A stretch of DNA of 64,000 nt, taken from positions 7,325 through 71,324 of the forward strand of contig CACYFZ010000004.1 in the NCBI GenBank assembly GCA_902773835.1, read 5' to 3'. The notes under the pieces are model-generated. The model worked only from the letters and a program-made list of their open reading frames with translations. It was not told the origin of the DNA and did no database searches. Below are positions 42,068-64,000 of this stretch, piece by piece. Origin of the DNA: an uncultured Eubacteriales bacterium. Its GTDB lineage: Bacteria; Bacillota; Clostridia; Peptostreptococcales; Anaerovoracaceae. The first letter of the stretch is position 1. Every line of letters begins with the position of its first letter. Position numbers and translations under genes: made by a program.

Positions 42068-42085
42068 GCACTTTCCTGCTTATTA

Positions 42086-43414: not shown

Positions 43415-43511
43415 TGGCGGGAGTATGTGGGAATCGAACCCACCCGAGAGGCTTCTAACCCCTTACAACGGTTTTGAAGACCGCGAGGCACACCAGCACC
43501 TATCTACCCCC
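43415..43511 (-). tRNA. selC: tRNA-Sec (anticodon UCA), copy 2
   Basis: The minus strand reads GGGGGTAGATAGGTGCTGGTGTGCCTCGCGGTCTTCAAAACCGTTGTAAGGGGTTAGAAGCCTCTCGGGTGGGTTCGATTCCCACATACTCCCGCCA. It differs from copy 1 at 7 of 97 positions. Confidence 0.85.
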
Positions 43512-43518
43512 TCATTTT

Positions 43519-43577
43519 AAAAAAATTCGGACTGCGCCTCGTTTAGGGAGATGAACTGACTTAAGAGGCGCAGTCCT
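43519..43577 (-). terminator. Long hairpin plus U-tract after grdD
   Basis: On the minus strand, GGACTGCGCCTC, then a 25 nt loop, then GAGGCGCAGTCC, then GAATTTTTTT. The U-tract ends 7 nt before tRNA-Sec copy 2. Confidence 0.65.
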
Positions 43578-43598
43578 CATAGTATGGTAAGTAAACAA

Positions 43599-44756: not shown

Positions 44757-44767
44757 TATGCCCTCCT

Positions 44768-46315: not shown

Positions 46316-46325
46316 AGTAGTCTCC

Positions 46326-46643
46326 TTATACGTACTTCTCTACCATTTCCTTTACTGCATCAGCAGTAGCATCGTCCTTTACGAGCTCTTCTACTTTCTC
46401 ACCGTCCTTGTAGATAGCGATTACAGGAAGACCCATTACCTTCTGACCGATAGCTACTCTTCTGGCCTTTGTTGTGTTAAGCGCCGTGAATTTCAGTTTG
46501 TCACCGTACTGATCTGCAAGTGCGTGTACGTGTGGCATAAGAGCCTGGCAAGGTACGCATCCGTCGCCGTAGAAATCTACTACTACGTATCCTTCTGCGT
46601 TCAATACTTCTTCATCAAATGTTTTCTTATCCAGTTCCAGCAT
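46326..46643 (-). CDS. trxA: Thioredoxin (grd-associated type)
   Basis: 105 aa. The active site is GCVPC rather than WCGPC. Confidence 0.85.
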   Translation of the reverse strand: MLELDKKTFDEEVLNAEGYVVVDFYGDGCVPCQALMPHVHALADQYGDKLKFTALNTTKARRVAIGQKVMGLPVIAIYKDGEKVEELVKDDATADAVKEMVEKYV

Positions 46644-46663
46644 TGTTTTGTCCTCCTTTGAAA

Positions 46664-47617: not shown

Positions 47618-47737
47618 TTGACCCACCTCCATGAATCGAGTTGTTTGATTATTCTTTGGTTTTCATCGGTCAGAGGGACCCGCATTCGACAGGTTATAAA
47701 TGGATGACCTGCCGAATACGACTCCGACCTTTTCAAC

Positions 47738-48208
47738 TTAAGCTTCGGCGACCTGTTCGCGAATAGCATTCATCTCTTCGCAAATGTCGTCTACATCCAG
47801 CACCATTTCCATCATGCTGACCTGTTCATCATATACAGCCTCATCGATTTCAGCTTTGATTTCAGGCTCACATATGTGATAACACGCGAGTTTCAACGAA
47901 ACTCCGGCCAGACACCCTGCAAATGTAGGATCTCCGAGAGCTACTGTTTCAGCTGCGAGGCCTGCTGCCTCTCCTTCAGCTGCTCCAACCAGTACTACCA
48001 GATTATCTGCTCCGTACTGATCGTAGAACTCTTTAACTCTCTTCTGATTCTCCAAATCCATGGCTCCGGCGGCCGTTCAGACGAAGCACTCAGTCGAGTA
48101 ATATACGACCTCGGCTCCTGCTGACTTGGCACAGTCTGCTATCGCTGGACCCGGAATACCGTCACGGTCTCCGATTACGATAGCTTTCTTTCCATTCAGA
48201 ATAGCCAT
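47738..48208 (-). CDS. grdA: Glycine reductase selenoprotein A, with an in-frame UGA at 48077-48079
   Basis: Translation from the ATG at 48208 gives [58 protein letters not shown]... The track shows only the part after the UGA (47738..48061). Confidence 0.9.
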
Positions 48209-48264
48209 CTTGTTCTCCTTTCCTTTGTATTTTGTTTTTTTGTAAATGAAGATTATTTATCGAT

Positions 48265-48302
48265 GGACATAGGCCGAGAAATAGGGGCTCGCGGCCTATG
48301 CC
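48265..48302 (-). other. GC-rich intercistronic hairpin between DUF3841-A and grdA
   Basis: CATAGGCCGAG pairs with CTCG(CG)GCCTATG, giving an 8+3 bp stem with a 2 nt bulge. No U-tract follows on the minus strand. Confidence 0.55.
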
Positions 48303-48419
48303 ACCGTCTCTTAAGAAAGAAAGTGTTGCTACTTTCAATCTTAATTGACTGTAATTAATTGTCGCTCTTTGCTGGGAAACAAAAAGAGAATGGCTAATTG
48401 AGAGCATGTAAATAACCGT

Positions 48420-49001
48420 TTACTGCTCTAAAAGCGATTCTTTTTTAATGCACCAAAGACCCGCCTGGACGGCTCTGACTCCGTCATACTCCCCTCTTCT
48501 GATGGCATCATCATGACGAAGTAGTCTCTTCCAGCTGTCTGTGATTGTCCTTTTTATATCCGGATAGAATGGCTTCAAAATTGCTTCAGAGCTGTCTTTA
48601 ATTCCTCTTCTCTCCAGTTCTTTCTCGAAAGATTCTTCATCAGCTTCATTCTCCCCGATATAAGAGAGTCTTAGCACCTTGTACCAGTCATAAGCATCGA
48701 AGAAAACCGCCTCATCCTTCGGCACTTTCAGAACCATAATTCTGCTTCCGGATGAAGTATCTGCCATTTCTGCATCAGCAAAAGCCCAGTACGGATAATT
48801 GCTGCTGTCCGCACGAGGAACGATTTGCTCTGCCATTCTTATATATTCTTCATACGCAGACAGAAATATCTGCGCACTTTCCTCGTATTTCTTTTGTACG
48901 TACTCTCTCTTTGAATATGCGATGCCATCCCTTTCGACGGCCTCCCACACAGGCTCGGCCTGAGGTGAGTAAAGAATTACTTTATTATCTTTTCTATCCA
49001 T
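48420..49001 (-). CDS. DUF3841-family protein (paralog A)
   Basis: 193 aa with a GGGAGG RBS upstream. I recognise it as DUF3841-like, but a profile search is needed to confirm this. It shares YP.W...SYI.ENE.D...FYP.IK..I..SW.RL with the neighbouring gene. Confidence 0.6.
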   Translation of the reverse strand: MDRKDNKVILYSPQAEPVWEAVERDGIAYSKREYVQKKYEESAQIFLSAYEEYIRMAEQIVPRADSSNYPYWAFADAEMADTSSGSRIMVLKVPKDEAVFFDAYDWYKVLRLSYIGENEADEESFEKELERRGIKDSSEAILKPFYPDIKRTITDSWKRLLRHDDAIRRGEYDGVRAVQAGLWCIKKESLLEQ

Positions 49002-49534
49002 TCTTTCCTTACCTCCCAGACAATACCGTATGCGGTATCACTTCCGAGCCTCACGTTCTCATCAAACAATCTGTCCCAGCTGGCGATTATCTCAGCCTTT
49101 ATCTCAGGGTAAAAATCAGTCATGACAGCGCGAGCATCGGATATGCCGAGGCCTTTCATGTAATCAGTGTGCCTTTCCCGGTCGTCTTCGTTTTCGGGTA
49201 TATATGAATAATTTGTTATACATGTCCACTTGGCGGTATCAAGAAGAGCTATATCATCGCTTTCAATCTCAAGTTCCAGCACGACATAGCCATCTTCCGG
49301 TATCATGGTCGCTTCTCTTTCAAGCGATACCCAGACGGGATATCTGACATCATCAGGTCTTTTATCCGCAGTCGGAGAATGATCCGCGAGCCACTCATAG
49401 ATGCTGAGCATGATGTCTGCGGTATCTTCGAGTTCTCTTCGAATGAAGCCCTCGTCAGCGATGAACCTTCCGTTCCTGCTCAGCTGATCTAAGACTGCAA
49501 TATTCTGTTTGGTCCAGACTCTGACTTTCGACAT
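48977..49534 (-). CDS. DUF3841-family protein (paralog B)
   Basis: About 185 aa from the ATG at 49534 (MSKVRVWTKQNIAVL...). The track ORF begins at 49603. The 3' end overlaps the start of paralog A by 25 nt. Confidence 0.6.
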   Translation of the reverse strand: MSKVRVWTKQNIAVLDQLSRNGRFIADEGFIRRELEDTADIMLSIYEWLADHSPTADKRPDDVRYPVWVSLEREATMIPEDGYVVLELEIESDDIALLDTAKWTCITNYSYIPENEDDRERHTDYMKGLGISDARAVMTDFYPEIKAEIIASWDRLFDENVRLGSDTAYGIVWEVRKEWIEKIIK

Positions 49535-49571
49535 AAGCCCCTGAATCAATTGATACCTTAGTAGTGGAAAC

Positions 49572-49604
49572 GGTGCCGGCCTTGCCGGTAGCAAGGCCGA
49601 CACC
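49572..49604 (-). other. 14 bp GC-rich hairpin between grdB and DUF3841-B
   Basis: On the minus strand, GGTGTCGGCCTTGC-TACCG-GCAAGGCCGGCACC with one G-U pair. It is followed by GTTTCC, which is a weak U-tract. Confidence 0.55.
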
Positions 49605-49652
49605 CATCTTAAGTGATGTTATTCGTTTCCGTCTTCAGAACTTGTTAATTAA

Positions 49653-50966
49653 CTAGTCCTCAAAGATAGTCTGATCGCTTACCTCTGTCTCAAGAGCCTT
49701 GAGTGCCTTGAGGACGAGTTTGCGACGAAGTGCCTTCTCCTCATCCTTGTCGAGAGCAGGGTTGCCCAGAGGATGCGGGATAGCGATAGCAGGAACGATT
49801 CTGTTTGCTCCTACCGTCATGGAAATCGGAGTTACCGTACAAACGTGAACTACAGGGAGTCCTGCTCTCTCAAGTTCTTTTACCATCGTTGCGCCGCAAC
49901 GAGTACAGGTTCCTCAGGTAGAGGTCAGGATAACTGCATCCACACCGTCGGCCTTCAGTTTCTGTCCGATCTCCGCACCGTACTTCTTTGCTGAGGCTAC
50001 AGCAGTACCGTTTCCTACGGTTGCATAGAATTTCTCATGGAGTTTTCCGATAACGCCTTCTTTTTCTAGATCACGAAGAACGTCTACAGGAAGTACTCTG
50101 TCTGCATCCTGGTTGGCATATACAGGATCGTATCCGCCGTGAGCCGTCTCAAATGTGTTCTCATCGAGATCCGTAACTCCTGCGAGACTGTACTCACCGT
50201 ACTTAGAAGCACTTGAACTCTCAATGTGATCCGGGTTGCCCTTCACTACGATACCACCTGATGTAACCAATGCGATTGTGGCATGTGCCATGTCCTTAAC
50301 CGCAGGGTTAGGTGCAACTCTGTCGAAGTCAGGCATAGGATACTCGGTTGTGAACGGCTTATCTGCCAGCTTAGCCAGAAGCATATTTACGGCTCGCTTA
50401 GAGCCTCTTTCTTCTTCAAAGAAGTTGACTCTGACACCGTTATTCATATATCCTTCCTGGCTCGATGCGCCTATTTTTTCGCCCTTTACATACTTAAGAG
50501 CAAATGCTGTCATCTTCTTGACTGCATCTCTCATACCTGCAGCGCTGTCCTTTGTCTCGAGGATATATACCTTATCCTTGTACATGTCTGCACCGGGGTT
50601 CTCAACGTACATACCTGTCATAGCCTTGATGCCGAGTTCTTCCGCAACTGCGGATGCGATAGTTCCGCAAGCTACTCCGTAACGTCCTGCATTGAAAGCA
50701 GGGCCTGCTATGAAGAGATCAGGAGCAAGGTCTTTAACCCATCCGAGGATCTCAGCTTTAGCCTTGTCAATATTTTCGTTGAAATAGGAGTCTCCGCATA
50801 CGATAGTTGCAATTATCTCAGCTTCGTCTCCGAAACCTGCTGCGAATGCCGTGCCGGGTCCGATTACTTCTCCTTTATACAATTCTGCAGGGATGTCGGC
50901 TTTTTCCTCTCCGCCGATACCGGCAAAGAACTGATTTATGTAATGAACTACTTTGTATTTAGCCAT
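49653..50966 (-). CDS. grdB: Glycine reductase selenoprotein B, with an in-frame UGA at 49914-49916
   Basis: Track ORFs 49914..50999 and 49653..49886 join in frame across a TGA. The junction reads ...DAVILTST-U-GTCTRCGATMVKELE..., which is the UxxCxxC motif of GrdB. The start is set at the ATG at 50966, after AGGAGGAAAG. Confidence 0.9.
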
Positions 50967-50988
50967 TTTTCTTTCCTCCTTTCCCGGC

Positions 50989-52269
50989 TTATCTCGCACT
51001 CAGCTTTCCGAATCCCATCTCGTTGGTAGCACCGGTAATTACCTGGAGCTCTACTTCGAGTGAGCCGTCTTCTCTGAGCGTCTTATCACTTGCACCTGCT
51101 ATGAGATTGACATAATCGAGCATTCCGATTACCTTGTCAAGCTTTGGCAGAATGATTACTTCGTTGGCATTTCCGCCGGTTACTACGGCATCTGCTGCAG
51201 GGTCTGCGTCTGCAAGGGACTGTGACTTTCCGTCTCTTCCCGCATACTCATCCGTAACGATTACCGTCTTAACGCCTTCAGCCTCGATCTTCTTGCAGTT
51301 CATAATCAGGTCAGTATCAGGGTTTCCGAATCCTTCCTGAGTTACGATTACTCCGTCAAGATCAAGCATGCGGCAGAGCTTAGCTGTCATATTCGATGAT
51401 CTTTCTTTGTCTGCCAGATATACGTTTTCGTTTGTGATAATCTGGCAAACGAAGTTAATTGTCTTTCCGTGCTGTGCGAAGAGGTCCTCGATTACAGGGT
51501 TGTTCTGATGAACGTAAGTCGGGTTCTTATCGCAAGCCGATACGCAGTTGCCGGATACGATAGCTCCGTCCATAGCCTCTGTAGGACTGATAATTGTAGG
51601 GATAATCTTCTTGGCATCTACACCGTATACATATGTATCGTGAAGAAGACCCTGTGTCTGCAGCATGGAGACATATCCCACTCTCGGAAGATCCGGATAT
51701 TTCTCAATGCCTTCCTTAATTCCGCATGTTTCAAAAACATCAGTCTCATCAGGCTTGATGTCTCTGGCGAGTTCTCCGATCTTGGCAGCAACTCTGAACC
51801 CTGCCATTCTTACAGCCTTCTCATAGTCATGCTGCTTAAGATCTTCAACAGGTTCACAAACCATGCAAAGGTTAATTGTCTTTGAGAACGGTGTATAATC
51901 TGCTCCCGGTCCGCTCATATCGATAATTCCTTCCTGGAATCCGACAATCTTTCCGGCAGTAACTACAGCCATTCCCTTAAGGGCAAGTGTCTTACCGGAA
52001 CCAACGGTGTCAACCTTTGAAATCATTCCAGGGAATATACCTCCCTTTCCTTCAACCTTGACACGCGGTTCAATTACATCCTTTACCGGTGTGATACGTA
52101 CTGATTCGCCCGGTTTTGCGATTTCAAATACTACATCCTTGAGTTTTTCGTCCTCAAGTACCACCGGTTTGAGATCTTCCGGATTAACGAAGAGTACTCC
52201 GTTCTCGATTTTGGAGTTTTCCGCGAAACGGATATCGGTGATATTGATTTTTCCGATTTCCAATCTCAT
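50989..52269 (-). CDS. grdE: Glycine reductase proprotein GrdE
   Basis: 426 aa. The Asn241-Cys242 pair (SGNCVSA) sits at the position where GrdE proproteins self-cleave to form the pyruvoyl group. Confidence 0.85.
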   Translation of the reverse strand: MRLEIGKINITDIRFAENSKIENGVLFVNPEDLKPVVLEDEKLKDVVFEIAKPGESVRITPVKDVIEPRVKVEGKGGIFPGMISKVDTVGSGKTLALKGMAVVTAGKIVGFQEGIIDMSGPGADYTPFSKTINLCMVCEPVEDLKQHDYEKAVRMAGFRVAAKIGELARDIKPDETDVFETCGIKEGIEKYPDLPRVGYVSMLQTQGLLHDTYVYGVDAKKIIPTIISPTEAMDGAIVSGNCVSACDKNPTYVHQNNPVIEDLFAQHGKTINFVCQIITNENVYLADKERSSNMTAKLCRMLDLDGVIVTQEGFGNPDTDLIMNCKKIEAEGVKTVIVTDEYAGRDGKSQSLADADPAADAVVTGGNANEVIILPKLDKVIGMLDYVNLIAGASDKTLREDGSLEVELQVITGATNEMGFGKLSAR

Positions 52270-52376
52270 TTCAAATCGCCTCCTTTTTGGTATAATGATT
52301 GAGCTAACTTTTTTGTTGGTCGGAGCCGATTACGCATAGGGGCTGCGTAATCGTATCCGTTGTATAAGAAAAGAGG

Positions 52377-52769
52377 TCACTCGTCTGCTGCTTCGGCGGC
52401 ACTCGCCAAAAGACTCAGGTCCACCACCTGGTAGTCAAGAAGCAAATCATGACTTGTGTCCTCTTTCTTATGCGTAAATTTATTGTAGGCCGTAATAGCC
52501 TTGTTGATTAATTCTCTCGATTCATCCGAGCTTACGGCATCCCAAGTATAAGTTCCGGCTTTTTTCTTCAGGAGCAGGGATTTATATGGCGTTTCATTTG
52601 GCTTAACACTGCCGTAAAGCGGGTGATTAAGAAGAACGCAGCCTGAATCAATCATGTCTGCGGCAATCGAAAGAATTGATTCGGCAGGCACATCATAAAA
52701 ACTAACCCTATGGCTGTCTCCGAATTTTTCATTCACTTTTGGGTTGTTTGTCAGAATCGTGTAATCCAT
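52377..52769 (-). CDS. grdX: GrdX
   Basis: About 130 aa from the ATG at 52769 (MDYTILTNNPKV...). It is the first gene of the grd operon. Confidence 0.75.
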   Translation of the reverse strand: MDYTILTNNPKVNEKFGDSHRVSFYDVPAESILSIAADMIDSGCVLLNHPLYGSVKPNETPYKSLLLKKKAGTYTWDAVSSDESRELINKAITAYNKFTHKKEDTSHDLLLDYQVVDLSLLASAAEAADE

Positions 52770-52789
52770 CTGCCCGCCTCTCAATAGAT

Positions 52790-53012
52790 AAAAAAGAAGA
52801 ATGCCGCATTAACACGTACAGCATTCTTCTGTCTCATCATCCTTAAAATCTGATTCAGAAATAGGTGCGCCTATCGGTCCTTTTGCTTGAAAGTTTCACA
52901 CCAAATAATGCCAATCATCTGATGTTTGCCTCTTCAGCGGTCGCTGTAAAACGACTCTCTCCCGAAAGGAATAATCCCTCTGGATTCAATTATTGCCCCT
53001 ATTTCTTGATAA
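52790..53012 (-). promoter_or_regulatory. Glycine riboswitch: a single aptamer, a 5' accessory hairpin and a terminator
   Basis: The minus strand reads CGGGAGAGAGUCG..CGACCGCUGAAGAGGCAAAC....GUGAAACUUUCAAGCAAAAGGACCG. This matches the glycine aptamer core (GGAGAG...CCGAAGGAGCAA...CUCUCAGGCAAAAGGAC). The terminator AGAAGAATGC...GCATTCTTCT plus TTTTTT lies at 52790-52830. Confidence 0.75.
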
Positions 53013-53114: not shown

Positions 53115-54254
53115 CTACGCTTTTTCCTCTGTTTTATTCTTATACATCATATCATCCGCTGTATCTATTAGCTTCTCCGCTGAGGCGAGTGGTGAAATAC
53201 ACTTGGCATATCCCATAGACATTTCAATTATGTAGTCCAAATCCGCCTTTTTGGATTCTTCATCTATGTATTTCCTGATATCTGCAATTATTCTTTCCGG
53301 GTTCTTCGCATTAGGTCCCGATACTATAACGCAAAACTCATCTCCGCCCCATCTGGCTACGAAATTATGACTGTTTTCACGATACTTGTTCAAAGCCAGC
53401 CCTACGAGTCTGAGAGCCTTGTCTCCTTCTACATGACCATATGTGTCATTAATCAGCTTAAAGTTATCTATATCTCCAATGAAGAATAAGAGCGGTTCCT
53501 TTTCATTGGCTGTCATAATATGTTCTGCAAGATAACTGTCAACTGCCTTTCTGTTGCTCAGCTGCGTTACATTATCGGTAAAAATCTGCGATTGCAGCAA
53601 GTTGGTGTATATCAAAACCGTACCGAAGAGAAGTGCAAGTTCCATAACAGGCAGGTTTTCAGCAACTATGTCAAGAAGGCCGGCAGCAACCGGAAAAACC
53701 AAAAACGTCGCCTCTATATGATAACTCCTCTTTTGATTCTTTGAGCTTAGTTTTCTGGACTGCAATGTAATATGTGCCGTAGCGAAAACCAGATATGAAA
53801 CTGCCAAAATAAACATGGTCGGATAAAGAGGACCATGGATGTATTCATTTTTTTCATTGTAATAAAAAACCCACTTTGTAATCGGTGTCGTCAGAATAAA
53901 CCCCAGCGCGATTACGAGCGGCACCATAGATACTATTCTGAACGTCCTCATCTTTACAAAGTCGGTAGACAGTTTGGCCTCAACATACTTAAACCAATAA
54001 TATGATGCCATACATATGGATATGAGATTTATAACGGAGAAGAATGATCCGTCCCACTTAAGAAATCCGAAGTTTATCCACACCCACACCATATTGGACA
54101 AAACAAAACCCAAGTACCACAGAAGATAATTTCTGAAAGCCAGTACTTCCTGCTCTGAACCTAAGTTGATATTAATCTGAAACAATATTGTGGTAGCAAT
54201 TAATGCACACACCACCGTAACGAGAAAATATGCAAAAGTATATGTGAATACCAT
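53115..54254 (-). CDS. Membrane-anchored diguanylate cyclase (GGDEF)
   Basis: 379 aa with about 7 N-terminal TM helices, then a GGDEF domain (RWGGDEFCVIV). Confidence 0.8.
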   Translation of the reverse strand: MVFTYTFAYFLVTVVCALIATTILFQININLGSEQEVLAFRNYLLWYLGFVLSNMVWVWINFGFLKWDGSFFSVINLISICMASYYWFKYVEAKLSTDFVKMRTFRIVSMVPLVIALGFILTTPITKWVFYYNEKNEYIHGPLYPTMFILAVSYLVFATAHITLQSRKLSSKNQKRSYHIEATFLVFPVAAGLLDIVAENLPVMELALLFGTVLIYTNLLQSQIFTDNVTQLSNRKAVDSYLAEHIMTANEKEPLLFFIGDIDNFKLINDTYGHVEGDKALRLVGLALNKYRENSHNFVARWGGDEFCVIVSGPNAKNPERIIADIRKYIDEESKKADLDYIIEMSMGYAKCISPLASAEKLIDTADDMMYKNKTEEKA

Positions 54255-54304: not shown

Positions 54305-54341
54305 TTTTAATAAAAGGTGGCCGGGATTCTACCCGGCCACC
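54305..54341 (-). terminator. Intrinsic terminator after ygfK
   Basis: GGTGGCCGGG-loop-CCCGGCCACC forms a 10 bp GC stem followed by TTTTATTAAAAG on the minus strand. Confidence 0.8.
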
Positions 54342-54406
54342 CTCGTATGGATTATCAGCAAGTGATAAGTGTAAAGAGCGTTTTGTGAGCGAAAACGCTT
54401 ATATTC

Positions 54407-57394
54407 TTATACTCCCGTCATGTAGCTGTAATCATCCAGCACAGCTTTGGTCAGCTTGCAAATATCCTCAGGAAGCTTTGATGCAGCTTCATCGAGTGTG
54501 CACTCGAACTCGGCTTTGTCGTAGCGAACTTTGAGTTTTCCGCCGTCGAGTGGAAGGAATCCTTCGTTCTCGCTGTCCCTGAAGTCTTTTTCGGTAGCAA
54601 AGAGTGTCCATTTATCCTTGTACGGGCGTCCGTTGTATGGGCAGAATACCGCGCAGTTGCCGCACTCGTTGCACATGATGTCGACATGTACGATCTGAGT
54701 CTTTTCCATACCCGGTACCTCAATCGAGATATTTGCTCTGTTCGGGCAAACCTCTACGCAGGCCTCGCAGACCTTCTGGCAACCGAGACATCTGACTCCG
54801 TCGTCCTCCTCGATTTCACCGCAGAGATATCCGTGGCGATTCTTATAAGCCTTTGCGTCTGTGATCGCTGTCAGGCTGTCATCGTAGAATGTGGCTCCTG
54901 CAATTGCGATTGCAACTCTTGCAGCATCTGCAATGCCCTTTACTACAGTAGCAGGGCCTGCCTTACAGTCGCCGGCAGCATAGATGTGATCTACGCTGGT
55001 CTTAAGATCTGCTCCGAGCACCGGACGGCCTCTGTCGTCCATCTTGGCTCCGCAAGCATTGTAGAGAGATGCATCGATTCTCTCACCTACAGCGGCGATT
55101 ACTGTATCTGCAGGAACGCTGACCTTCTCTCCTGTGTCAACCGGGCTTCTTCTTCCGGACTCATCGGGATCACCCAACTTCATAACTGAGCACTCAAGCA
55201 CTCCGTCCTTAACACCGATAGGTGCGAGGAGCTCCATGAACTCCACTCCGTCCTCGACAGCCATTACCAGCTCTTCCTCATCAGCCGGCATGTATCTCTT
55301 AGTACGTCTGTAAACGAGTCTTACATTCTCAACTCCCGCAACTCTCTTAGCTGCACGAGCTACGTCCATAGCTGTGTTACCGCCGCCGATTACGACGATG
55401 TTCTTTCCGATATTGAGAGCTGAAGGATTGTTCTTAGCCTCATAGAGGAACTCAAGAGCATCCATTTCCTCTCCGTACTCGAGATTGGCTCTGCCCTTCT
55501 CCCATGCACCGATTGCGATGACTACATCGTCATATCCCTCAGCGAGGAGATCCGCAGGGTTCTTAACCTCTACTCCGTATTTGAACTCTGCACCGTAAGC
55601 GCTGCAAAGTGCCACATCCTTTTCGATGGTCTCATCGCTGATTCTGAATGCAGGGATTACCTGGCGTACGACTCCGCCTGCAACGTCTGCCTTCTCAAAT
55701 ACAGTTACCTTGGCACCTGCTCTTGAAAGGAAGCTTGCGCTTGCAAGTCCCGCAGGACCCGCACCGATAACGGCGACCTTCTTATCGCATGCACCCTCAG
55801 TCTTGAGTCCGCCTACAAGCTTGTCGAATGCCGATGTAGCAGCTTCGAGCTTGACCTTTCTGATCTTTACAGACTCCTCATAGTGGTTTCTCATGCACTT
55901 ATCTGCGCAGGTATGCGGACAGATAGTTCCTGTGATGAACGGAAGAGCGTTCTTCTTCAGTATGATTGCCAGGGCTTCCTCAGCCTTTCCATGTGACATG
56001 GCCGCCAGGTATTCAGGGATATCCTGGTTGATTGGGCAGCCGTCCGAGCATGGTGAATCGAAGCAGTCGATCTTAGGCAGCTCTCTGGCCATCTTTCTGT
56101 CAGGAAGCGGCTTAACCGGCTTTTTGTAATATCCGTCTGTCAGGGCATCTGCAGCGAGTTTCTCGACCTTTGCAGGATCAACACCTTCGAAGGCCTTGTA
56201 TTCACTGTCTTCGAGAATCTCAGCCAGCTGTGCCATTCTCTCATAGCCACCCGGTTTAAGCAGCGTAGTAGCCATTGTGATAGGCCAGATACCTGCATCG
56301 AAGAGCGCCTTAATATTGTATGCATCGGCACCGCCGGAGTATGAGATTCTGAGTTTTCCGTCGAATTCCTTGCTGATTCTTCTGGCGAGCTCAGTTGTCA
56401 GAATGTAGAGAGATCTTCCCGACATGTACATCTCTTCACTCGGAAGCTCTCCTGCAGCTACGTCTACAGGGAATGTATTGGTCAGCTTAACACCGAACTC
56501 CAATCCCTTCTCAGCGCAAAGCTTGATGAGGCGGTTGAACATAGGAACCGCATCCTCCCATTGGAGGTCCTCTAAGAAGTGATGGTCGTCAAATACGATA
56601 TAGTCATATCCACATGAATCGAGTCTTTCTCTGGCTGTCTCATATCCGAGCAGAGTCGGGTTGCACTTGATATAAGTGTTAAGGCCCTTCTCAGTAATGA
56701 GATATGTGGCAATTCTCTCGATTTCATCAGGCGGGCATCCGTGAAGAGTAGACTCTGTTATGGAAGCCGAAACCTGTGCAGGAATGCTGTCTACGAATGC
56801 TTCATCGATCTTGCTGAAAAGTCCGATGTTCTTCTTAAGCCATTCCTTGGCTTCCTTAAATACAGGTCTGTCGGATGCATCCTTCATGCCTTCGATATAG
56901 TTATCTACCTTTTCGGACTTGATGCCCTCAAGATCGTAACCTACGGACATATTGAATACGAAGCTGTCAGGATCTCCGAGTCCGAGCTCTTTAGCGAGGA
57001 CTTTACAGATAACCCATGCCTTTACGTATTCTTCATAAGCCTGGCCTACTTCGAGCTCTGTGGACCACTCACAGTTATAGCACTCATCGTGAGCCGTGAT
57101 GCATGGCTTTGCAACGCATGCAGCCAGTTCAGCTCCGTCCATAATCTGTACGGTCTTAAGTTCGAAGAATCTCGCACCTGTTACATAGGATGCGATGATG
57201 TTCTGCGCCAGCTGTGTATTAGGGCCGGCTGCAGGTCCGAACGGTGACTCAAGCTTTTCTTTGAAAATAGGCAATTCTTTACCGCCCAGCTTAGGCATTC
57301 TCTTCTCTCCGAAGATAGCTCCGTCTTTCTTGTACTCTTCGAGCACCCATCTCATCAGATGATCGAAGCTCATAGGAGTCATAATATCGCTCAT
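54407..57394 (-). CDS. ygfK: YgfK-family oxidoreductase (DPD-like TIM barrel, Fe-S clusters and a GltD-like flavoprotein)
   Basis: 995 aa. The N-terminus (MSDIMTPMSFDHLMRWVLEEYKK...FGPAAGPNTQLAQNIIASYVTGARFFELKTVQ) parallels E. coli YgfK as I recall it. Confidence 0.85.
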   Translation of the reverse strand: MSDIMTPMSFDHLMRWVLEEYKKDGAIFGEKRMPKLGGKELPIFKEKLESPFGPAAGPNTQLAQNIIASYVTGARFFELKTVQIMDGAELAACVAKPCITAHDECYNCEWSTELEVGQAYEEYVKAWVICKVLAKELGLGDPDSFVFNMSVGYDLEGIKSEKVDNYIEGMKDASDRPVFKEAKEWLKKNIGLFSKIDEAFVDSIPAQVSASITESTLHGCPPDEIERIATYLITEKGLNTYIKCNPTLLGYETARERLDSCGYDYIVFDDHHFLEDLQWEDAVPMFNRLIKLCAEKGLEFGVKLTNTFPVDVAAGELPSEEMYMSGRSLYILTTELARRISKEFDGKLRISYSGGADAYNIKALFDAGIWPITMATTLLKPGGYERMAQLAEILEDSEYKAFEGVDPAKVEKLAADALTDGYYKKPVKPLPDRKMARELPKIDCFDSPCSDGCPINQDIPEYLAAMSHGKAEEALAIILKKNALPFITGTICPHTCADKCMRNHYEESVKIRKVKLEAATSAFDKLVGGLKTEGACDKKVAVIGAGPAGLASASFLSRAGAKVTVFEKADVAGGVVRQVIPAFRISDETIEKDVALCSAYGAEFKYGVEVKNPADLLAEGYDDVVIAIGAWEKGRANLEYGEEMDALEFLYEAKNNPSALNIGKNIVVIGGGNTAMDVARAAKRVAGVENVRLVYRRTKRYMPADEEELVMAVEDGVEFMELLAPIGVKDGVLECSVMKLGDPDESGRRSPVDTGEKVSVPADTVIAAVGERIDASLYNACGAKMDDRGRPVLGADLKTSVDHIYAAGDCKAGPATVVKGIADAARVAIAIAGATFYDDSLTAITDAKAYKNRHGYLCGEIEEDDGVRCLGCQKVCEACVEVCPNRANISIEVPGMEKTQIVHVDIMCNECGNCAVFCPYNGRPYKDKWTLFATEKDFRDSENEGFLPLDGGKLKVRYDKAEFECTLDEAASKLPEDICKLTKAVLDDYSYMTGV

Positions 57395-57420
57395 ACTTTC
57401 CCCCTTTGTCTGATCTACAA

Positions 57421-58761
57421 CTAATACTTTCTGTTATTAAGTGCGCCCCAGAGCTTCTTGGATTGCTCCATAGTCCAGGCGTTAATCTTGTCTTCGTCAA
57501 TACCTACGAATTCACGGTCTTTGTAAAGAACCTTACCGTTGATAACAGTAGTGCGGCAGTTCTTACCCATCATACCGAAAAGCATATGGCCGTCGATGTT
57601 CTCATCCGAGAACGGTGTGAACGGCTTATAATCCATTACGATTACATCAGCTGCAGCGCCTTCCTTCAGGATGCCCAGAGGCTTTTTGAAGTACTTAGCA
57701 GCAATCTTACGGTTGTTATCAAAGAGCATTGTCATATCTTCCATCCATGCTACGTTAGGAAGACATGCGTTGTGTCTCTGAATGATGAGGAAGACCTTAA
57801 GGCTCTCCAGCATGTCGTGTGTATATGCGTCAGTACCCATACCTACCGTAATGCCCTTGGCCATCATCTGAAGTACAGGTGAGCATCCTACTGCATTACC
57901 CATGTTGGACTCAGGGTTGTTAACAGCCATTGTGCCCGTCTCAACCATAATATCCATCTCTGCAGGGTTGATGTGTATGCAATGTCCGAGCATAGTCTTC
58001 TCACCGAGTATGCCGTGGTTAAGAAGTCTGTTTACAGGTCTGCATCCGTAGTTTCTGAGAGAGTCATAAACATCGTTCATACCCTCAGCCACATGGATGT
58101 GGAATCCCGTCAATCCGTCGTTTTCTTTTACCATATTCTCGAATGTCTTATCCGAGATTGTAAAGAGTGCGTGGCCTCCGAACATGGCGGCAATCATATC
58201 GCTGTCCTGCTTAGCGGCCCAGCGTGCGAAGTCTCCGTTTTCCTTGATGCTCTCGAGGGCTTTCTGCTCTCCATCTCTGTCGGATACTTCATAGCAGAGG
58301 CAGGCTCTCATGCCCAGCTCTTCACATACGTCTTTAATAGCAAAAAGAGACCCCGGTATCTCGCAAAAACTTGCGTGATGGTCAAATATGGTAGTAACAC
58401 CGTCGCGAATGCAATCGAGCACGGTTGCATAAGCACTGGCCTTAGTGCCGTCAATAGTAAGATGACGGTCTATATTCCACCACATTCCCTCAAGGATCTC
58501 CAAAAAATTAGTAGGATTATTGCCATCAATGGCAAGTCCTCTTGCAAGTCCGGAGTAAATGTGAGTATGTGCATTGATCAGCCCCGGCATGATAACGCCG
58601 CCCTGCGCATCCACATACTCAGCATCAGGATACTTGCTCTTAAGTTCTGTTTCTTCACCTACAGCGACAATTACTTCACCGTCACATACTACGGCGCCCT
58701 TTTCTATGTAAGGATTATCGCTGTCTCTGGTAATAACTCTACCGTTTCCAATAAGAAGCAT
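57421..58761 (-). CDS. ssnA: SsnA-family amidohydrolase
   Basis: 446 aa with a metal-dependent hydrolase HxH (INAHTHIYSGLARG), which parallels E. coli SsnA. Confidence 0.85.
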   Translation of the reverse strand: MLLIGNGRVITRDSDNPYIEKGAVVCDGEVIVAVGEETELKSKYPDAEYVDAQGGVIMPGLINAHTHIYSGLARGLAIDGNNPTNFLEILEGMWWNIDRHLTIDGTKASAYATVLDCIRDGVTTIFDHHASFCEIPGSLFAIKDVCEELGMRACLCYEVSDRDGEQKALESIKENGDFARWAAKQDSDMIAAMFGGHALFTISDKTFENMVKENDGLTGFHIHVAEGMNDVYDSLRNYGCRPVNRLLNHGILGEKTMLGHCIHINPAEMDIMVETGTMAVNNPESNMGNAVGCSPVLQMMAKGITVGMGTDAYTHDMLESLKVFLIIQRHNACLPNVAWMEDMTMLFDNNRKIAAKYFKKPLGILKEGAAADVIVMDYKPFTPFSDENIDGHMLFGMMGKNCRTTVINGKVLYKDREFVGIDEDKINAWTMEQSKKLWGALNNRKY

Positions 58762-58792
58762 ATCGTCCCCTCCTATCTCTGTTTAAGAGAAA

Positions 58793-59734
58793 TTACTTTT
58801 TGATGATAGTTCCGGTCTCTCCCTCGATTCCTTCCTTTGCTTTCTCAAGCAAAGTGATGAGAGCTGTACGACCATCCTTAGACTCTGCGAACTTAACAGC
58901 CGCTTCTACCTTCGGCAGCATGGATCCCGGTGCGAACTCACCTGCTTCCATATACTTTTTGGCTGTTACGGAATCAATTTCTCCGAGTTTTTCTTCGTTT
59001 GGCTTGTTGTAGTTAATAGCCACTTTCTCAACTGCTGTAAGGATAATCAGCATGTCCGCATCGAGTTCTTCAGCCATGCACTCTGCGGCAAAATCCTTAT
59101 CAATTACGGCAGCTGCGCCTTTCAGGTGATGTCCTTCCGTCTTAAATACAGGAATTCCGCCACCTCCGCAGGCTATTACTACCTGACCGGCTTCTACCAA
59201 GTCCTTTATTGTTTCTATCTCAATTATAGATACAGGCTTCGGTGACGCAACAGCTCTTCTGTAACCTCTTCCGGCATCTTCCATTACCACGAAACCTCTT
59301 GTCTCAGCAAGGAAATCAGCTTCTTCTTTTGTCATGAATGCGCCGATAGGCTTTGTAGGATTCTGGAATGCAGAATCGTTCCTGTCAACTTCAACCTGTG
59401 TAAGAAGCATAGCAACACCCTTCTTTATTCCACGATCCAAAAGCTCTTCTCTGAGTCTGTTCTGAAGATCGTATCCGATATATCCCTGGCTCATCGCTGT
59501 GCATACGGAAAGCGGTGCCAGCGGATATTTTTCAGGATTGGATCTTGTAAGCTCCATCATCGCATTTTGTATCATGCCTACCTGAGGGCCGTTACCGTGA
59601 GCGATAATTACCTCATGTCCTGCTTCTATCAGATCTGCTATTGCAGATGCGGTTGTTTTAACAGCCTCCATCTGCTCCGGCAGATTGCCGCCCAGGGCGT
59701 TTCCGCCCAGGGCAACTACTATTCTTTTACTCAT
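58793..59734 (-). CDS. Carbamate kinase (YqeA/ArcC-like)
   Basis: 313 aa beginning MSKRIVVALGGNAL, with HGNGPQVG also present. Confidence 0.85.
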   Translation of the reverse strand: MSKRIVVALGGNALGGNLPEQMEAVKTTASAIADLIEAGHEVIIAHGNGPQVGMIQNAMMELTRSNPEKYPLAPLSVCTAMSQGYIGYDLQNRLREELLDRGIKKGVAMLLTQVEVDRNDSAFQNPTKPIGAFMTKEEADFLAETRGFVVMEDAGRGYRRAVASPKPVSIIEIETIKDLVEAGQVVIACGGGGIPVFKTEGHHLKGAAAVIDKDFAAECMAEELDADMLIILTAVEKVAINYNKPNEEKLGEIDSVTAKKYMEAGEFAPGSMLPKVEAAVKFAESKDGRTALITLLEKAKEGIEGETGTIIKK

Positions 59735-59785
59735 ATCAATCTACCTCTTTTTTATTTTATCAGAGGACCTTAGCCTCCGCTGAAA

Positions 59786-60994
59786 TTACTTCTCCAGATA
59801 AGCCTGTCTTTCTTTACCTGCCTTAAGAAGCTTCTCAAGAGCAGCCTTAGGATCTTTCTGCTTGGCGAGGAAGATCATGGCAGCGATTACATATGGCTTG
59901 TTGGATGCTTCCTTATACAGGGAGTCGCGGGCTCTGTCGAATACTTCACCGGTAACTTCACCGTGCTCGCAGGATACACCCTGGATGTCTGCAGGCAGCG
60001 GATGCATGTAGAGCGTATCGAGGCCGTTCTTTGTCAGCTTCATCATCTCATCGTCTACGAGCCAATCCATATGTTCTTTGTTCTGAGCGAGAAGTTCTTT
60101 CTCAAGCTTATCGATTCCGTCGAAATCACCCTTACCGTAGAGGTCTGTTCTTACTTCCATAGCGGCAAACGGAGCCCAGCTCTTAGGATATACGACGTCT
60201 GCATCCTTGAACGCCTCCTTCATATCGTTTGTAACAGTGAACTTACCGCCGGATTCTTCAGCGTTCTTCTCAGCTACCTTAACTACATCGTCCATTACCT
60301 CATATCCTTCCGGATGAGCGAGAACTACGTCCATTCCGAATCTTGTGAGGAGTCCGATAATGCCCTGTGGTACGGAAAGAGGTTTTCCGTATGATGGGGA
60401 GTATGCCCATGTCATAGCCAGTTTCTTACCCTTGAGGTTCTCAACGCCGCCCATCTCATGGATGATATGAAGAGCGTCAGCAAGTGACTGTGTAGGGTGA
60501 TCGATATCACACTGAAGGTTTACGAGTGTAGGCTTCTGCTCCAGCTCACCGTCCTTGGCAGCCTGGGATACGGAGTCTACTACTTCGTGCATGTAAGCAT
60601 TACCCTTACCGATGTACATATCGTCACGGATACCGATTACGTCAGCCATGAATGAAATCATTGTAGCTGTCTCTCTTACTGTCTCTCCGTGTGCGATCTG
60701 AGACTTCTTCTCATCGAGGTCTGCTACTTCAAGTCCGAGAAGGTTGCAGGCACTTGCAAATGAGAAACGAGTTCTTGTTGAGTTGTCGCGGAAGATTGAG
60801 ATTCCGAGACCTGAGTCGAAAATCTTAGTCGAGATGTTCTGCTCTCTGAGTGATCTCAGAGCGTCAGCAACTGCGAAGATAGCAGCAATCTCATCATCTG
60901 TCTTCTCCCATGTCAGGAAGAAGTCGTTTTCGTACATGTTCTTGATGTCCAGCTTGTCCAGCTGATCGAGATATTTTTGAATATCGTTAGCCAT
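59786..60994 (-). CDS. ygeW: YgeW-family carbamoyltransferase
   Basis: 402 aa. It contains FRDNSTRTRFSFASA, SQIAHGETVRETA and WAYSPSYGKPLSVPQGIIGL, nearly colinear with E. coli YgeW as I recall it. Confidence 0.85.
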   Translation of the reverse strand: MANDIQKYLDQLDKLDIKNMYENDFFLTWEKTDDEIAAIFAVADALRSLREQNISTKIFDSGLGISIFRDNSTRTRFSFASACNLLGLEVADLDEKKSQIAHGETVRETATMISFMADVIGIRDDMYIGKGNAYMHEVVDSVSQAAKDGELEQKPTLVNLQCDIDHPTQSLADALHIIHEMGGVENLKGKKLAMTWAYSPSYGKPLSVPQGIIGLLTRFGMDVVLAHPEGYEVMDDVVKVAEKNAEESGGKFTVTNDMKEAFKDADVVYPKSWAPFAAMEVRTDLYGKGDFDGIDKLEKELLAQNKEHMDWLVDDEMMKLTKNGLDTLYMHPLPADIQGVSCEHGEVTGEVFDRARDSLYKEASNKPYVIAAMIFLAKQKDPKAALEKLLKAGKERQAYLEK

Positions 60995-61023
60995 TTATTT
61001 GTCCTCCGTTATATATGTTCAAA

Positions 61024-62424
61024 CTATTTAATATCGTTGTTGGTTGTTCCCTGACGGAAAGTTGTGATGTCATCAATCTTTTCGTATGTAGGGTACTGGT
61101 TGCAAGCTGCGGCATATACTGCTGCACATGTTACGAGATCCTGCTTCCAAGTGATTTCGTTAGGGGCGTGTGCCTGTGACTCAGCTCCCGGTCCGAATCC
61201 TACGCATGGGATTCCGTATCTTCCCTGGATGGAAACTCCGTTAGTGGAGAATGTCCACTTGTCGAGAAGAGGTCTTCCTGTTCTTGTGCTCATGGATGAA
61301 GGAGCTCCGATTCTCTCATCTCCGTACATAGCCTTGTGAGCATCTACGAGAGTCTTAACGTGAGCGGCTTCTCCGTTGTTGATCCATGTCGGGAAGTAGC
61401 ACTCTGTCTCATAAACCTCTCCTGTCCAGGACGGTCTGTCATACATATACATGCTTACTTCTACGTCATCACCGTACTTTTTAACTGCAGGAAGTTGTCT
61501 GATTTCCTCGAGGCAGCTGTCCCAAGTCTCTCCGGCTGTCATACGACGGTCGATGGAGATAGCGCAGGAGTCTGCTACGGCACATCTTGATGGTGATGTA
61601 TAGAAGATCTGTGAAGTTGTGCATGTGCCCCTTCCGAGGAATCTTGCATCTTCATAGTGATCAGGGTTGAACTCAGGCTCGAGCATCTTTACGAGACCCT
61701 TGATTTCATCATCTGCTCCGCATCCGTTTTCATTAAGAGCTCTTACATCCTGGAGAATATCTGCCATCTTGTAAATAGCGTTGTCTCCTCTTTCAGGAGC
61801 GGATCCGTGGCAGGAAATTCCCTTAACGTCCACTCTGATTTCCATACGACCTCTGTGGCCTCTGTAAACTCCGCCGTCTGTAGGCTCTGTGGAGATTACG
61901 AATTCAATCTTTGATCTTGCATCTTCAGGTCCGTTGAAGTACTTATTAACGATGTACTGCCAGCACATTCCGTCGCAGTCCTCTTCCTGTACGGAACCTA
62001 CTACCATGATCTTGTATCCGTCAGGAATAAGACCGAGGTCTTTCATAATCTTGGCACCGTATACTGCAGAAGCCATTCCGCCTTCCTGGTCGGAACCGCC
62101 GCGTCCGTATATGATCTCGTCTGTCTCGTATCCTTCATAAGGATCCTTTTCCCAGTTGTTGATGTTACCGATACCTACTGTGTCGATGTGAGAGTCGATA
62201 GCGATGATCTTGTCTCCTTCGCCCATCCAACCGATAACGTTTCCGAGTCCGTCTACTTCGACCTTGTCATAACCGAGTTTTTCCATCTCAGCTTTGATGC
62301 AGGCTACAACTTCGCCTTCCTCGCAGCTTTCAGACGGATGAGAAATCATTGCACGAAGGAATGCTGTAAGATCCTTCTGATAACCCTCTGCGGTCTTTTT
62401 GATAAGTTCATAATCCAGTGCCAT
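61024..62424 (-). CDS. ygeY: YgeY-family M20 peptidase/deacylase
   Basis: 466 aa. It contains IPSESCEE-type, [24 protein letters not shown] and FSTNGVSI motifs that parallel E. coli YgeY. Confidence 0.85.
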
Positions 62425-62504
62425 TTTTGTTTCCTTTCTACGCTATTAAGTGCGTTAAAAATGTTTTTGTAATAAGTGATATGTTTAGTTGATTTATTAT
62501 CTGT

Positions 62505-63737
62505 TTATTTATTGGCGTTTCCTTCGAGGTCGTTGTACGCTCCGTCCCATACCGCATCTCTGAATCGGTCAGGATCTGTATTTCCTTCAGTGGAGAAGAG
62601 CAGCACCTTGCTGTCTTTTCCGAGTCCGAGATACTCTTTCAAGTCCTTGTACTCTTCCTTCTCCATTATATTGGATACAACGCCCATTCCTATGGCTCCG
62701 CTCTCCCCGGAGATTATTACCGTATCTCCCTTTACCGGAACCGCGAACATCCTCATTCCTCTTGCAGCCACGCTGTTTTGAGCTGCGATAAATGCACTTA
62801 CGTGATTTCTGAGAATGTCCCAACCTATTGTGTTAGGCTCTCCGCATGCGAGACCTGCCATAATAGTCGGCATGTCGCCTCCGACCTTTCTCGGCTCTCC
62901 GTCTCCGGCTTCAGCTCCTTTATAGAGGCAAGCAGCGGCTTCGGCTTCCATTATGATAAATTTCGGTGGATTGTCCTTATATACATTGTAGAGATATCCG
63001 ACTACTGCGGCTGCCAGTGATCCTACACCGGCCTGAACGAATACGTGAGTCGGTCTGGTCATGCTCATTGCATCGAACTGCTGAAGCACCTCGTCAGCCA
63101 TTGTTCCGTATCCCTGCATTATCCAAGAAGGAATCTTTTCATATCCTTCCCATGCAGTGTCCTGAACCATAATGCCGTGCTCCGACTCTGCAGCCTCTCT
63201 TGCGGCCTTCCTTACGCAGTCGTCATAGTTGAGCTCTTCTATAGTTACATCGGCTCCCTCTGCTGCTATGCTGTGATATCTCCTCGGAGTCGTTCCCTTA
63301 GGCATTCTGACTACGGCCTTCTGTCCCAGCCTGTTGGCTGCCCAGGCAATTCCCTTGCCGTGGTTTCCGTCTGTGGCTGTGTAGAATGTAGCCTGAGGAT
63401 ATGCATCTCTAAATTCTTTGCTTGTCAGATATTCGAAGTTCATCTCCGAAATATCTTTTCCCATCTCTTCTGCAATACACTTGGCTATCGCGAAGGATCC
63501 GCCCAGCACCTTGAAGGCGTTAAGTCCGAAGCGATAGCTTTCATCCTTAACATACAAACCGCCAAGACCGAGACGATTGGCCATTCCCTGCAGACTTACA
63601 AGCGGTGTTACCGTGTACTGAGGAAAGCTGACATGAAAGGCTCTTGCAGCCTTGACATTATCTATCGACATAATCGAGAGATTCTTGTCTTCAGTCTTGG
63701 GCATGTGGTTATCCACCCACTTCATTTTGTTTTCCAT
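62505..63737 (-). CDS. dpaL: Diaminopropionate ammonia-lyase (YgeX/DpaL family)
   Basis: 410 aa with a PLP beta-family fold (NAFKVLGG...ATDGNHG). It is the first gene of the six-gene block. Confidence 0.8.
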   Translation of the reverse strand: MENKMKWVDNHMPKTEDKNLSIMSIDNVKAARAFHVSFPQYTVTPLVSLQGMANRLGLGGLYVKDESYRFGLNAFKVLGGSFAIAKCIAEEMGKDISEMNFEYLTSKEFRDAYPQATFYTATDGNHGKGIAWAANRLGQKAVVRMPKGTTPRRYHSIAAEGADVTIEELNYDDCVRKAAREAAESEHGIMVQDTAWEGYEKIPSWIMQGYGTMADEVLQQFDAMSMTRPTHVFVQAGVGSLAAAVVGYLYNVYKDNPPKFIIMEAEAAACLYKGAEAGDGEPRKVGGDMPTIMAGLACGEPNTIGWDILRNHVSAFIAAQNSVAARGMRMFAVPVKGDTVIISGESGAIGMGVVSNIMEKEEYKDLKEYLGLGKDSKVLLFSTEGNTDPDRFRDAVWDGAYNDLEGNANK

Positions 63738-63932
63738 TTGTTAGTTCACCTGATTTCTGATTTATTTTTATCCGAAAATTTTATATCTAAAAATTTTTTT
63801 GGTTTCTGCGTTTATTTTAGCACAATATATAAGTTTTACAAGAGAAAAACCTAAAAATTATTTTGTTGTTATAAGAATTTTTTTCTGTTAAAATACTAAT
63901 AAGTATTTCTTTTAATGCTAACGGAGGTGTTC

Positions 63933-64000
63933 ATGTCGATACCACGCTTACTTGAAGATTTGACTAAAGTCGCAAAAGGCATAAGCGCTACTTTCGGTTC
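63933..64000 (+). CDS. 5' end of an unidentified gene that runs off the right edge
   Basis: The ATG at 63933 lies 6 nt after ACGGAGGTG. The translation is MSIPRLLEDLTKVAKGISATFG..., which is too short to classify. Confidence 0.3.
   Translation, partial: MSIPRLLEDLTKVAKGISATFG

Follow-up and report, generated by a model that had tools for sequence, protein, structure and literature searches.

A probable reductive urate pathway operon of six genes, with entry steps most likely encoded elsewhere, in an uncultured rumen Anaerovoracaceae bacterium

The present study analyzes a block of six genes, ygeX-ygeY-ygeW-carbamate kinase-ssnA-ygfK, at positions 54407 to 63737 of a 64-kb stretch of metagenomic contig CACYFZ010000004.1, the whole of which is referred to below as the window. 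The block is very probably one unit of the reductive urate pathway, for which 2,8-dioxopurine pathway and ‘yanthine’ pathway are other names, and its host is an uncultured rumen member of the Anaerovoracaceae that most likely encodes the entry steps at another locus. The original prediction, made from the nucleotide letters alone, regarded the block as the accessory half of the anaerobic urate system, and this description holds: the five signature genes induced by urate (ygeX, ygeY, ygeW and ygfK, plus ssnA; PMC12990295) are all present together with a carbamate kinase gene, and there is no molybdenum (Mo) hydroxylase or hyuA nearby.

The six genes are consecutive open reading frames (ORFs) on the minus strand, from 63737 down to 54407, with intergenic gaps from ygeX to ygfK of 80, 29, 51, 31 and 26 nt as calculated from ORF coordinates; the co-orientation, coordinates and 26–80 nt gaps originally given were reproduced exactly in the ORF table. 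All six products scored above curated NCBIfam cut-offs, mostly of equivalog models, and Pfam domain content agreed. Near-colinearity with E. coli had also been claimed and was borne out by end-to-end alignments with the counterparts in E. coli K-12 (NC_000913), with identities of 49, 58, 65, 66, 33 and 43% in the order ygeX to ygfK. The first gene, ygeX or dpaL (62505–63737), encodes a diaminopropionate ammonia-lyase of 410 aa (TIGR03528, 592.7 bits against a cut-off of 532) that keeps the pyridoxal-phosphate lysine motif NAFK(V/M)LGG as well as TDGNHG and QDTAWEGY. The M20 ureidohydrolase gene ygeY (61024–62424; 466 aa) matched NF009555 and TIGR03526 at 610 and 596 bits against a cut-off of 321, and its product exceeds E. 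coli YgeY by 63 aa through three insertions and a C-terminal tail. This extra length was considered as a novelty and rejected, as the five further Anaerovoracaceae species that were inspected share the 466-aa form, and for other Firmicutes the spans of tblastn matches point to proteins of similar length (about 458–470 aa). The knotted carbamoyltransferase YgeW (59786–60994; 402 aa; TIGR03316, 746 bits against 500) keeps STRTR and HPTQ. Its residues 330–336 read MHPLPAD, with an HPLP like that of aspartate transcarbamoylase where E. coli and Lachnospiraceae YgeW have HCLP, and HPLP was found in all 33 Anaerovoracaceae-type copies among the loci fetched. The carbamate kinase, of the yqeA/arcC type (58793–59734; 313 aa), scored 369.8 bits with TIGR00746 against a cut-off of 358. 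The amidohydrolase SsnA (57421–58761; 446 aa) exceeded the cut-offs of both NF005540 (658 bits, cut-off 444) and TIGR03314 (563 bits, cut-off 455); its HxH, HIHxAE, His and GTD metal-ligand motifs align with those of E. coli SsnA, and it is 73–95% identical to SsnA of 80+ urate clusters. Last is ygfK (54407–57394), encoding a 995-aa Fe-S flavoenzyme (DOPOR; TIGR03315, 1338.6 bits against 835) whose GAGPAGL dinucleotide fold is kept, as are its C-terminal Cys clusters. The block thus holds the SsnA family (IPR017700/TIGR03314) that serves as marker for finding such clusters, YgfK beside it with a start 26 nt downstream of ssnA, YgeW with an adjacent carbamate kinase 51 nt away, and both YgeY and YgeX.

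These reactions had been thought mostly poorly defined, a view now outdated, as every step of the pathway was reconstituted in vitro in two independent studies in 2025 (PMC12507026; bioRxiv 10.1101/2025.04.24.650524), and step biochemistry is established for orthologues from E. coli, Clostridium sporogenes and Clostridioides difficile (PMC12507026; bioRxiv 10.1101/2025.04.24.650524; PMC12990295). First, a Mo hydroxylase, either E. coli XdhD-YgfM or the selenium-dependent XdhAC (‘DOPDH’) of C. sporogenes, turns urate into 2,8-dioxopurine, which is dearomatised by YgfK (‘DOPOR’) with NAD(P)H as reductant, and SsnA opens the six-membered (pyrimidine) ring of the dihydro-2,8-dioxopurine to give ureidomethylhydantoin (PMC12507026; bioRxiv 10.1101/2025.04.24.650524). 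The hydantoin is then opened by HyuA to 2,3-diureidopropionate, YgeW releases carbamoyl phosphate by phosphorolysis of one ureido group and carbamate kinase makes ATP from it, the remaining ureido group is hydrolysed by YgeY, and YgeX converts the resulting 2,3-diaminopropionate to pyruvate and 2 NH3 (PMC12507026; bioRxiv 10.1101/2025.04.24.650524). The sole chemical disagreement between the two studies is which ureido group YgeW removes (PMC12990295). The route in the original prediction had the right reaction types, but it placed YgeY before YgeW, the reverse of the order in both 2025 studies, and left out the HyuA step between SsnA and YgeW.

By orthology to the E. coli and Clostridium enzymes, the entry enzyme in the window's host would be a selenium-dependent Mo hydroxylase producing 2,8-dioxopurine from urate. 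YgfK would dearomatise this product with NAD(P)H, and SsnA would open its pyrimidine ring to yield ureidomethylhydantoin. HyuA, which is not encoded here, would open the hydantoin before YgeW acts, whereupon YgeW would release carbamoyl phosphate from 2,3-diureidopropionate by phosphorolysis of one of its ureido groups and carbamate kinase would make ATP from carbamoyl phosphate; YgeY would hydrolyse the remaining ureido group and YgeX would turn 2,3-diaminopropionate into pyruvate and ammonia.

The six genes are probably one transcription unit extending from a promoter in the 195-nt spacer, between the operon and a divergent regulator gene, to a hairpin after ygfK. A consensus scan predicted a sigma-70-type promoter at 63814–63841 on the minus strand (TTGTAA, a 16-nt spacer and TG-n-TAAAAT); the total count in that scan was at chance level, so that the call is weak evidence alone, and both hexamers and the TG, with adjoining spacer sequence, are conserved in the spacer between regulator and ygeX of a sister species. 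A riboswitch upstream of ygeX was considered and dropped: there was no Rfam RNA element in 63600–64000, even at permissive thresholds. The divergent gene on the plus strand encodes a YheO-like regulator, of which the window holds the 5′ end (63933–64000; ATG at 63933, preceded by a GGAGG ribosome-binding site) before it runs off the right edge; the full-length protein, seen in contigs L001–L006, has 218 aa with PF08348 (PAS_6; 2e-35) and PF13309 (HTH_22; 1e-18). This regulator adjoins ygeX or ygeY in five other Anaerovoracaceae species as well (six in all). At the other end, the strong terminator claimed earlier was recovered as an intrinsic terminator at 54305–54344 on the minus strand, with a 13-bp G+C-rich stem, a 6-nt loop and the U-tract UUUUAUU. 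A weaker hairpin suggested by sequence follows ygfK more closely (54377–54399, minus strand), and the 111-nt tail after ygfK folds at −36.6 kcal/mol (z = −5.5 against shuffles). The terminator call is based on fold and sequence, and its hairpin was not listed by the consensus scanner. Taken from sequence features, the operon looks maintained and is probably expressed under the YheO-like regulator.

The six genes are all intact, and strong purifying selection acts on them. Compared with the three closest relatives, namely metagenome contig L088, the sister-species locus L096 and locus L008, dN/dS was 0.014–0.096 for computable gene pairs (there was no L088 comparison for ygeX and ygeY, and arcC against L096 was saturated at synonymous sites), and YgfK and SsnA were as strongly constrained as the downstream enzymes. 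Contigs encoding an identical YgeX match the window at 99.6–100% over the operon, and at that identity the operon is uninterrupted in 12 independent metagenome assemblies save for scaffold-join artefacts. There were apparent splits of ssnA in three assemblies; the possibility that these are pseudogenes was rejected, as they are artefacts of scaffolding, produced by an N-run and by a 38-bp join at a site where assemblies break repeatedly. The site lies inside ssnA at 58307–58426, where contig starts, the N-run and the 38-bp loss coincide, and the breaks are likely caused by co-occurring related strains with near-identical ssnA.

We compared the block with 80 loci obtained from an SsnA scan of species-representative genomes and annotated by tblastn with E. 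coli and window proteins. The best SsnA matches were to rumen and gut metagenome-assembled genomes (MAGs) labelled Mogibacterium sp. or Anaerovoracaceae, at 84–92% identity, while contig L088 carries an SsnA at 95%. Of the 80 loci, only L007, L008 and L029 share the order ygeX-ygeY-ygeW-arcC-ssnA-ygfK. Anaerovoracaceae clusters are commonly laid out as xdhABC-ygfM-xdhD-ssnA-ygfK-yqeB-SeXDH-hyuA-ygeW-arcC-<regulator-ygeY-PRTase-pyrBI, where SeXDH is a selenium-dependent xanthine dehydrogenase and PRTase a phosphoribosyltransferase. In L008, which has the six-gene operon, and in L088 and L092, which are visible from ygeW on, ygfK is followed by an M20 amidohydrolase gene, with or without an HD-GYP gene, then by a fused selenium-dependent XDH (in L008 matching TIGR03311 at 1127 bits) and by PRTase-pyrBI; SsnA identity to the window is 91–95% in relatives of this layout, and L088 and L092 continue into molybdenum cofactor (Moco) genes after PRTase-pyrBI. 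PRTase with pyrB-pyrI stands regularly after the selenium-dependent XDH in L008, L088, L090 and L092 and at the downstream cluster end, after ygeY, in L116 and L120; this neighbourhood could link YgeW-derived carbamoyl phosphate to pyrimidine synthesis. Genes for cyclic di-GMP signalling recur at the cluster boundary, as a GGDEF gene in the window and as a 638-aa HD-GYP gene between ygfK and the selenium-dependent XDH in other relatives. Two candidates raised by these loci were rejected. The 638-aa protein, for which there was no precomputed Pfam match, is not a substitute for HyuA but an HD-GYP-type phosphohydrolase, i.e. a signalling protein (Pfam HD; PDB 4MCW, 1e-11), and the 379-aa ORF after ygfK in L008, although of the same length as the GGDEF protein of the window, is unrelated to it, being an M20D amidohydrolase that is found also in other clusters.

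The window shares the layout of the sister MAG GCA_017515425.1 except for an inserted GGDEF gene and an upstream synteny break at an IS200 element. On contig 35 of that MAG, a xanthine/uracil permease gene is followed in turn by those for YqeC, a MocA-like protein, a Bmp-ABC transporter, YqeB and the divergent regulator, then by the operon and grdX, and contig 48 carries a selenium-dependent XDH, an XdhD-like gene and Moco genes (MBR2674726, MBR2675102). Across the relatives, an xdh-type Mo enzyme starts no more than 6 kb after ygfK in 47 of the 56 species-level loci with enough flank, and only 11 of the 80 loci have hyuA within 10 kb of ssnA, so that absence of hyuA near the block is usual; HyuA was also not found in the cluster contexts of the closest relatives. 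Judged by the sister MAG, the host genome most likely encodes the hydroxylase, HyuA and YqeB/YqeC at another locus; from this analogy, and because hyuA is so often unlinked, a dispersed but complete pathway is the most likely arrangement. Consistent with a selenium-dependent entry enzyme, the window carries a selenium supply line of SelD with an in-frame UGA, SelA, SelB and two selenocysteine tRNA (tRNA-Sec) genes. SelD and YqeB/YqeC were present in all cluster-bearing strains of Liu et al. (bioRxiv 10.1101/2025.04.24.650524); here SelD is itself a selenoprotein, and neither the window nor its flanks encode YqeB or YqeC, which the sister MAG has next to the operon.

The inspected region around the block amounts to about 81 kb, i.e. 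the 64-kb window with 10 kb to its left and 7.3 kb to its right, and the domain scan of the window took in most ORFs of at least 90 aa, including every large one. Tblastn with E. coli queries detected no homologue of XdhA, XdhB, XdhC, XdhD, YgfM, HyuA, YqeB, YqeC or MocA in the window, and neither an XdhD-YgfM nor an XdhAC/DOPDH type of Mo hydroxylase was present in the window and its 17 kb of flanks. No HyuA-type cyclic amidohydrolase was seen in the window, where SsnA was the only Amidohydro_1 protein among the ORFs scanned. An NCS2 permease encoded at 24819–26144, at a distance of 28 kb, gave the score of a uracil permease. An xdh-like hydroxylase, hyuA and a purine permease had been noted as missing from the window, which agrees with these results. 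The suggestion that they lie past the right edge did not hold, however: contigs with the identical operon run instead into the divergent PAS_6/HTH_22 regulator, an IS200/IS605 Y1 transposase (L001 6044–6511, just past window position 64000, where several assemblies break) and, on one scaffold, dnaN, dnaA and rpmH-rnpA-yidD-yidC-jag. There was no xdh, hyuA, yqeBC or permease gene in the 7.3 kb to the right or in the 10 kb to the left, which encodes RelA/SpoT, valyl-tRNA synthetase, Fic and a type I restriction system. The join to dnaN/dnaA comes from a single scaffold with an N-gap whose sides overlap by 14 nt, and it agrees with the monotonic GC skew and minus-strand gene bias of the window, which place the origin rightward. 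If the join is correct, the operon lies on the leading strand, with dnaN about 1.7 kb and dnaA about 3 kb away.

Several observations weigh against assignment of the block to a complete urate pathway in this host. The inspected 81 kb encodes neither a Mo hydroxylase nor HyuA, and YqeB, YqeC and a purine/urate permease are likewise missing from it; the permease-YqeC-MocA-ABC-YqeB module that abuts the regulator in the sister species is not at that position here, and synteny with the sister MAG stops exactly at the 3′ end of the regulator, at an IS200-type element. SsnA is only 33% identical to the E. coli enzyme that was assayed. The host's own selenium-dependent XDH and HyuA were not found via homologues of relatives, cluster membership, accession ranges or sample lists: the most prevalent or closest homologues, traced to their contigs, all came from other species that have clusters of their own, the prevalent candidates P0233, P0186 and P0007 all sit in complete clusters of other species, and the 90%-identity clusters of the closest selenium-dependent XDHs held no member with the host's prevalence signature, although this is weak negative evidence.

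An unlikely alternative is that the pathway is truncated and lives by cross-feeding, the hydroxylase and perhaps HyuA having been lost and the operon drawing ATP and pyruvate from intermediates such as 2,8-dioxopurine, diureidopropionate, albizziin or diaminopropionate supplied by neighbours, with no selenium or Mo step of its own. The missing genes, the break at the insertion sequence (IS) element in synteny with the accessory module of the sister species, and the failure to find a selenium-dependent XDH of matching prevalence profile among the closest homologue clusters would all fit. So would the supply side, as cells that are blocked or starved of formate excrete 2,8-dioxopurine (PMC12507026), which builds up in ygfK mutant cultures (bioRxiv 10.1101/2025.04.24.650524), and the same series of rumen samples contains many Anaerovoracaceae whose clusters are complete. 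Yet for a genome of a few Mb, absence from 81 kb means little, and the sister MAG, laid out in the same way, has its selenium-dependent XDH on another contig. Moreover, hyuA stands apart from ssnA in most genomes, no transporter for purines or intermediates adjoins the operon, and the constraint on YgfK and SsnA equals that on the downstream enzymes. It is rather improbable that the lineage has shed both the selenium/Mo hydroxylase and HyuA, leaving an operon near oriC to scavenge the purine-ring fragments of its neighbours, or else that an unrecognised enzyme opens the hydantoin; if either were true, this would be a natural case of a split, community-level 2,8-dioxopurine pathway.

Decay of the locus is very improbable. 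The operon could be the relic of a cluster broken by IS-mediated rearrangement whose pathway is no longer complete, for which the IS200/IS605 transposase at the exact synteny break and the apparently split ssnA of some assemblies might be cited. However, the splits are the scaffolding artefacts described above (N-run and 38-bp join) and the six ORFs are intact in other assemblies, dN/dS is 0.01–0.10, and promoter and regulator are conserved with the sister species. The older annotation as selenium metabolism proper, with YgfK as a selenate reductase subunit and the others acting on selenium compounds, survives in NCBIfam names (‘putative selenate reductase subunit YgfK’, ‘selenium metabolism protein SsnA’, ‘selenium metabolism-linked hydrolase’) and might seem favoured by a window rich in selA, selB, selC (two copies), selD, grd selenoproteins and a selenium-associated LysR, but it is already refuted for orthologues and has almost no probability here: purified YgfK neither requires nor is stimulated by selenate and specifically reduces 2,8-dioxopurine, and the selenium link is explained by selenium-dependent hydroxylases that feed the pathway (bioRxiv 10.1101/2025.04.24.650524), while the selenium genes of the window serve selenocysteine insertion for glycine reductase and SelD itself.

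There were several further features in the window. Between ygfK and a glycine riboswitch (52865–52974) is the gene for a GGDEF diguanylate cyclase (53115–54254, minus strand) that is inserted relative to the sister species. The riboswitch goes with a glycine/sarcosine/betaine reductase (grd) operon (43599–52974), directly downstream of the block, that encodes GrdB and GrdA with selenocysteine insertion sequence (SECIS) elements together with TrxB and TrxA; one SECIS element was located at 49876–49913, and two ORFs of 208 and 193 aa at 48420–49603 on the minus strand, between grdB and grdA, had no NCBIfam match and may be genuine genes or, in part, the tail of grdB cut off at its selenocysteine codon. 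As in the window, grd genes come after the urate operon in the sister MAG (L007/L096). This adjacency is not evidence of a functional link, and the product of the 2,8-dioxopurine pathway is pyruvate, not glycine (bioRxiv 10.1101/2025.04.24.650524; PMC12990295). Leftward of the grd operon are a tRNA-Sec gene, an NfnAB-like pair and pyruvate kinase, and further left are SelD, a selenium-associated LysR regulator, the uracil-type NCS2 permease, LarBCE, purine nucleoside phosphorylase and selC-selA-selB. Selenium genes are dense at 4664–8138, 22474 to about 24500 and 41102–52974; SelD (23442 to about 24500) has its in-frame UGA in GG*GAK, and selB, selA, selC, the LysR gene and a CobW-related selenoprotein also occur in the window. 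The two tRNA-Sec genes, at 8046–8138 beside selA-selB and at 43419–43511 just downstream of grdD, both on the minus strand, differ at 7 of 93 positions, with changes that look paired in stems by eye. A 476-aa protein (29037–30467, minus strand) had only a weak C-terminal match (43 bits) to a T9SS type A sorting domain, which is unexpected in Bacillota.

The pathway itself is biochemically solved, and what is new is its rumen Anaerovoracaceae host and a lineage-specific gene order. The known carriers of the anaerobic urate pathway thereby gain a lineage of rumen Anaerovoracaceae, though presence of the block alone is no proof that the pathway is complete, and ygeX-ygeY-ygeW-arcC-ssnA-ygfK would be better named by the functions of 2025 than as ‘selenium metabolism’. 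In E. coli K-12 the same six families, with the same chemistry by orthology, form the uricolytic cluster ygeW-ygeX-ygeY-hyuA-yqeA ... ygfK-ssnA-ygfM-xdhD-uacT (Li et al. 2025, PMC12507026). As originally stated, the E. coli genes are split in two, ygeW-ygeX-ygeY-hyuA-yqeA and ygfK-ssnA, with yqeB/yqeC/mocA between, whereas here they form one operon in another order, and hyuA, xdhD-ygfM, yqeB/yqeC/mocA and uacT are not nearby. The YheO-like PAS_6/HTH_22 regulator takes the place of the sigma-54 activator YgeV, and the 63 additional residues of YgeY and HPLP in place of HCLP in YgeW set the proteins apart. The classical purinolytic clostridial pathway of Rabinowitz, from xanthine through formiminoglycine and glycine to glycine reductase, is likewise an anaerobic breakdown of purines in a selenium-dependent organism, but its enzymes and intermediates are wholly different (bioRxiv 10.1101/2025.04.24.650524; PMC12990295), and none of its signature enzymes was recognised in the window.

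Clostridioides difficile follows the same logic, with SsnA as shared marker, but uses UacX for YgfK and UacY for YgeW and the kinase (PMC12507026), while the window keeps the NAD(P)H-linked reductase YgfK and the ATP-yielding phosphorolysis by YgeW and kinase. The C. sporogenes cluster (XdhAC, YgfK, SsnA, HyuA, YgeW, YgeY, YgeX; Liu et al. 2023/2025, bioRxiv 10.1101/2025.04.24.650524) represents the pathway in a Firmicute, with a fused Fe-S/Mo hydroxylase that depends on selenium; relatives of the window carry an XdhAC-type enzyme, and ATP would likewise be gained via YgeW and carbamate kinase. In the window, however, the XdhAC-type gene is unlinked, and the operon includes the carbamate kinase gene, which C. 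sporogenes has at another place. The canonical Anaerovoracaceae cluster of rumen and gut MAGs shares its proteins with the window (SsnA 83–84% identical), including the 466-aa YgeY, the HPLP-type YgeW and the YheO-like regulator; relative to it the order here is reshuffled and the hydroxylase, yqeB, hyuA and pyrBI parts are detached. The cluster has been freely reshuffled among close relatives, with the hydroxylase directly downstream in some, on another contig in the sister MAG, or unlinked.

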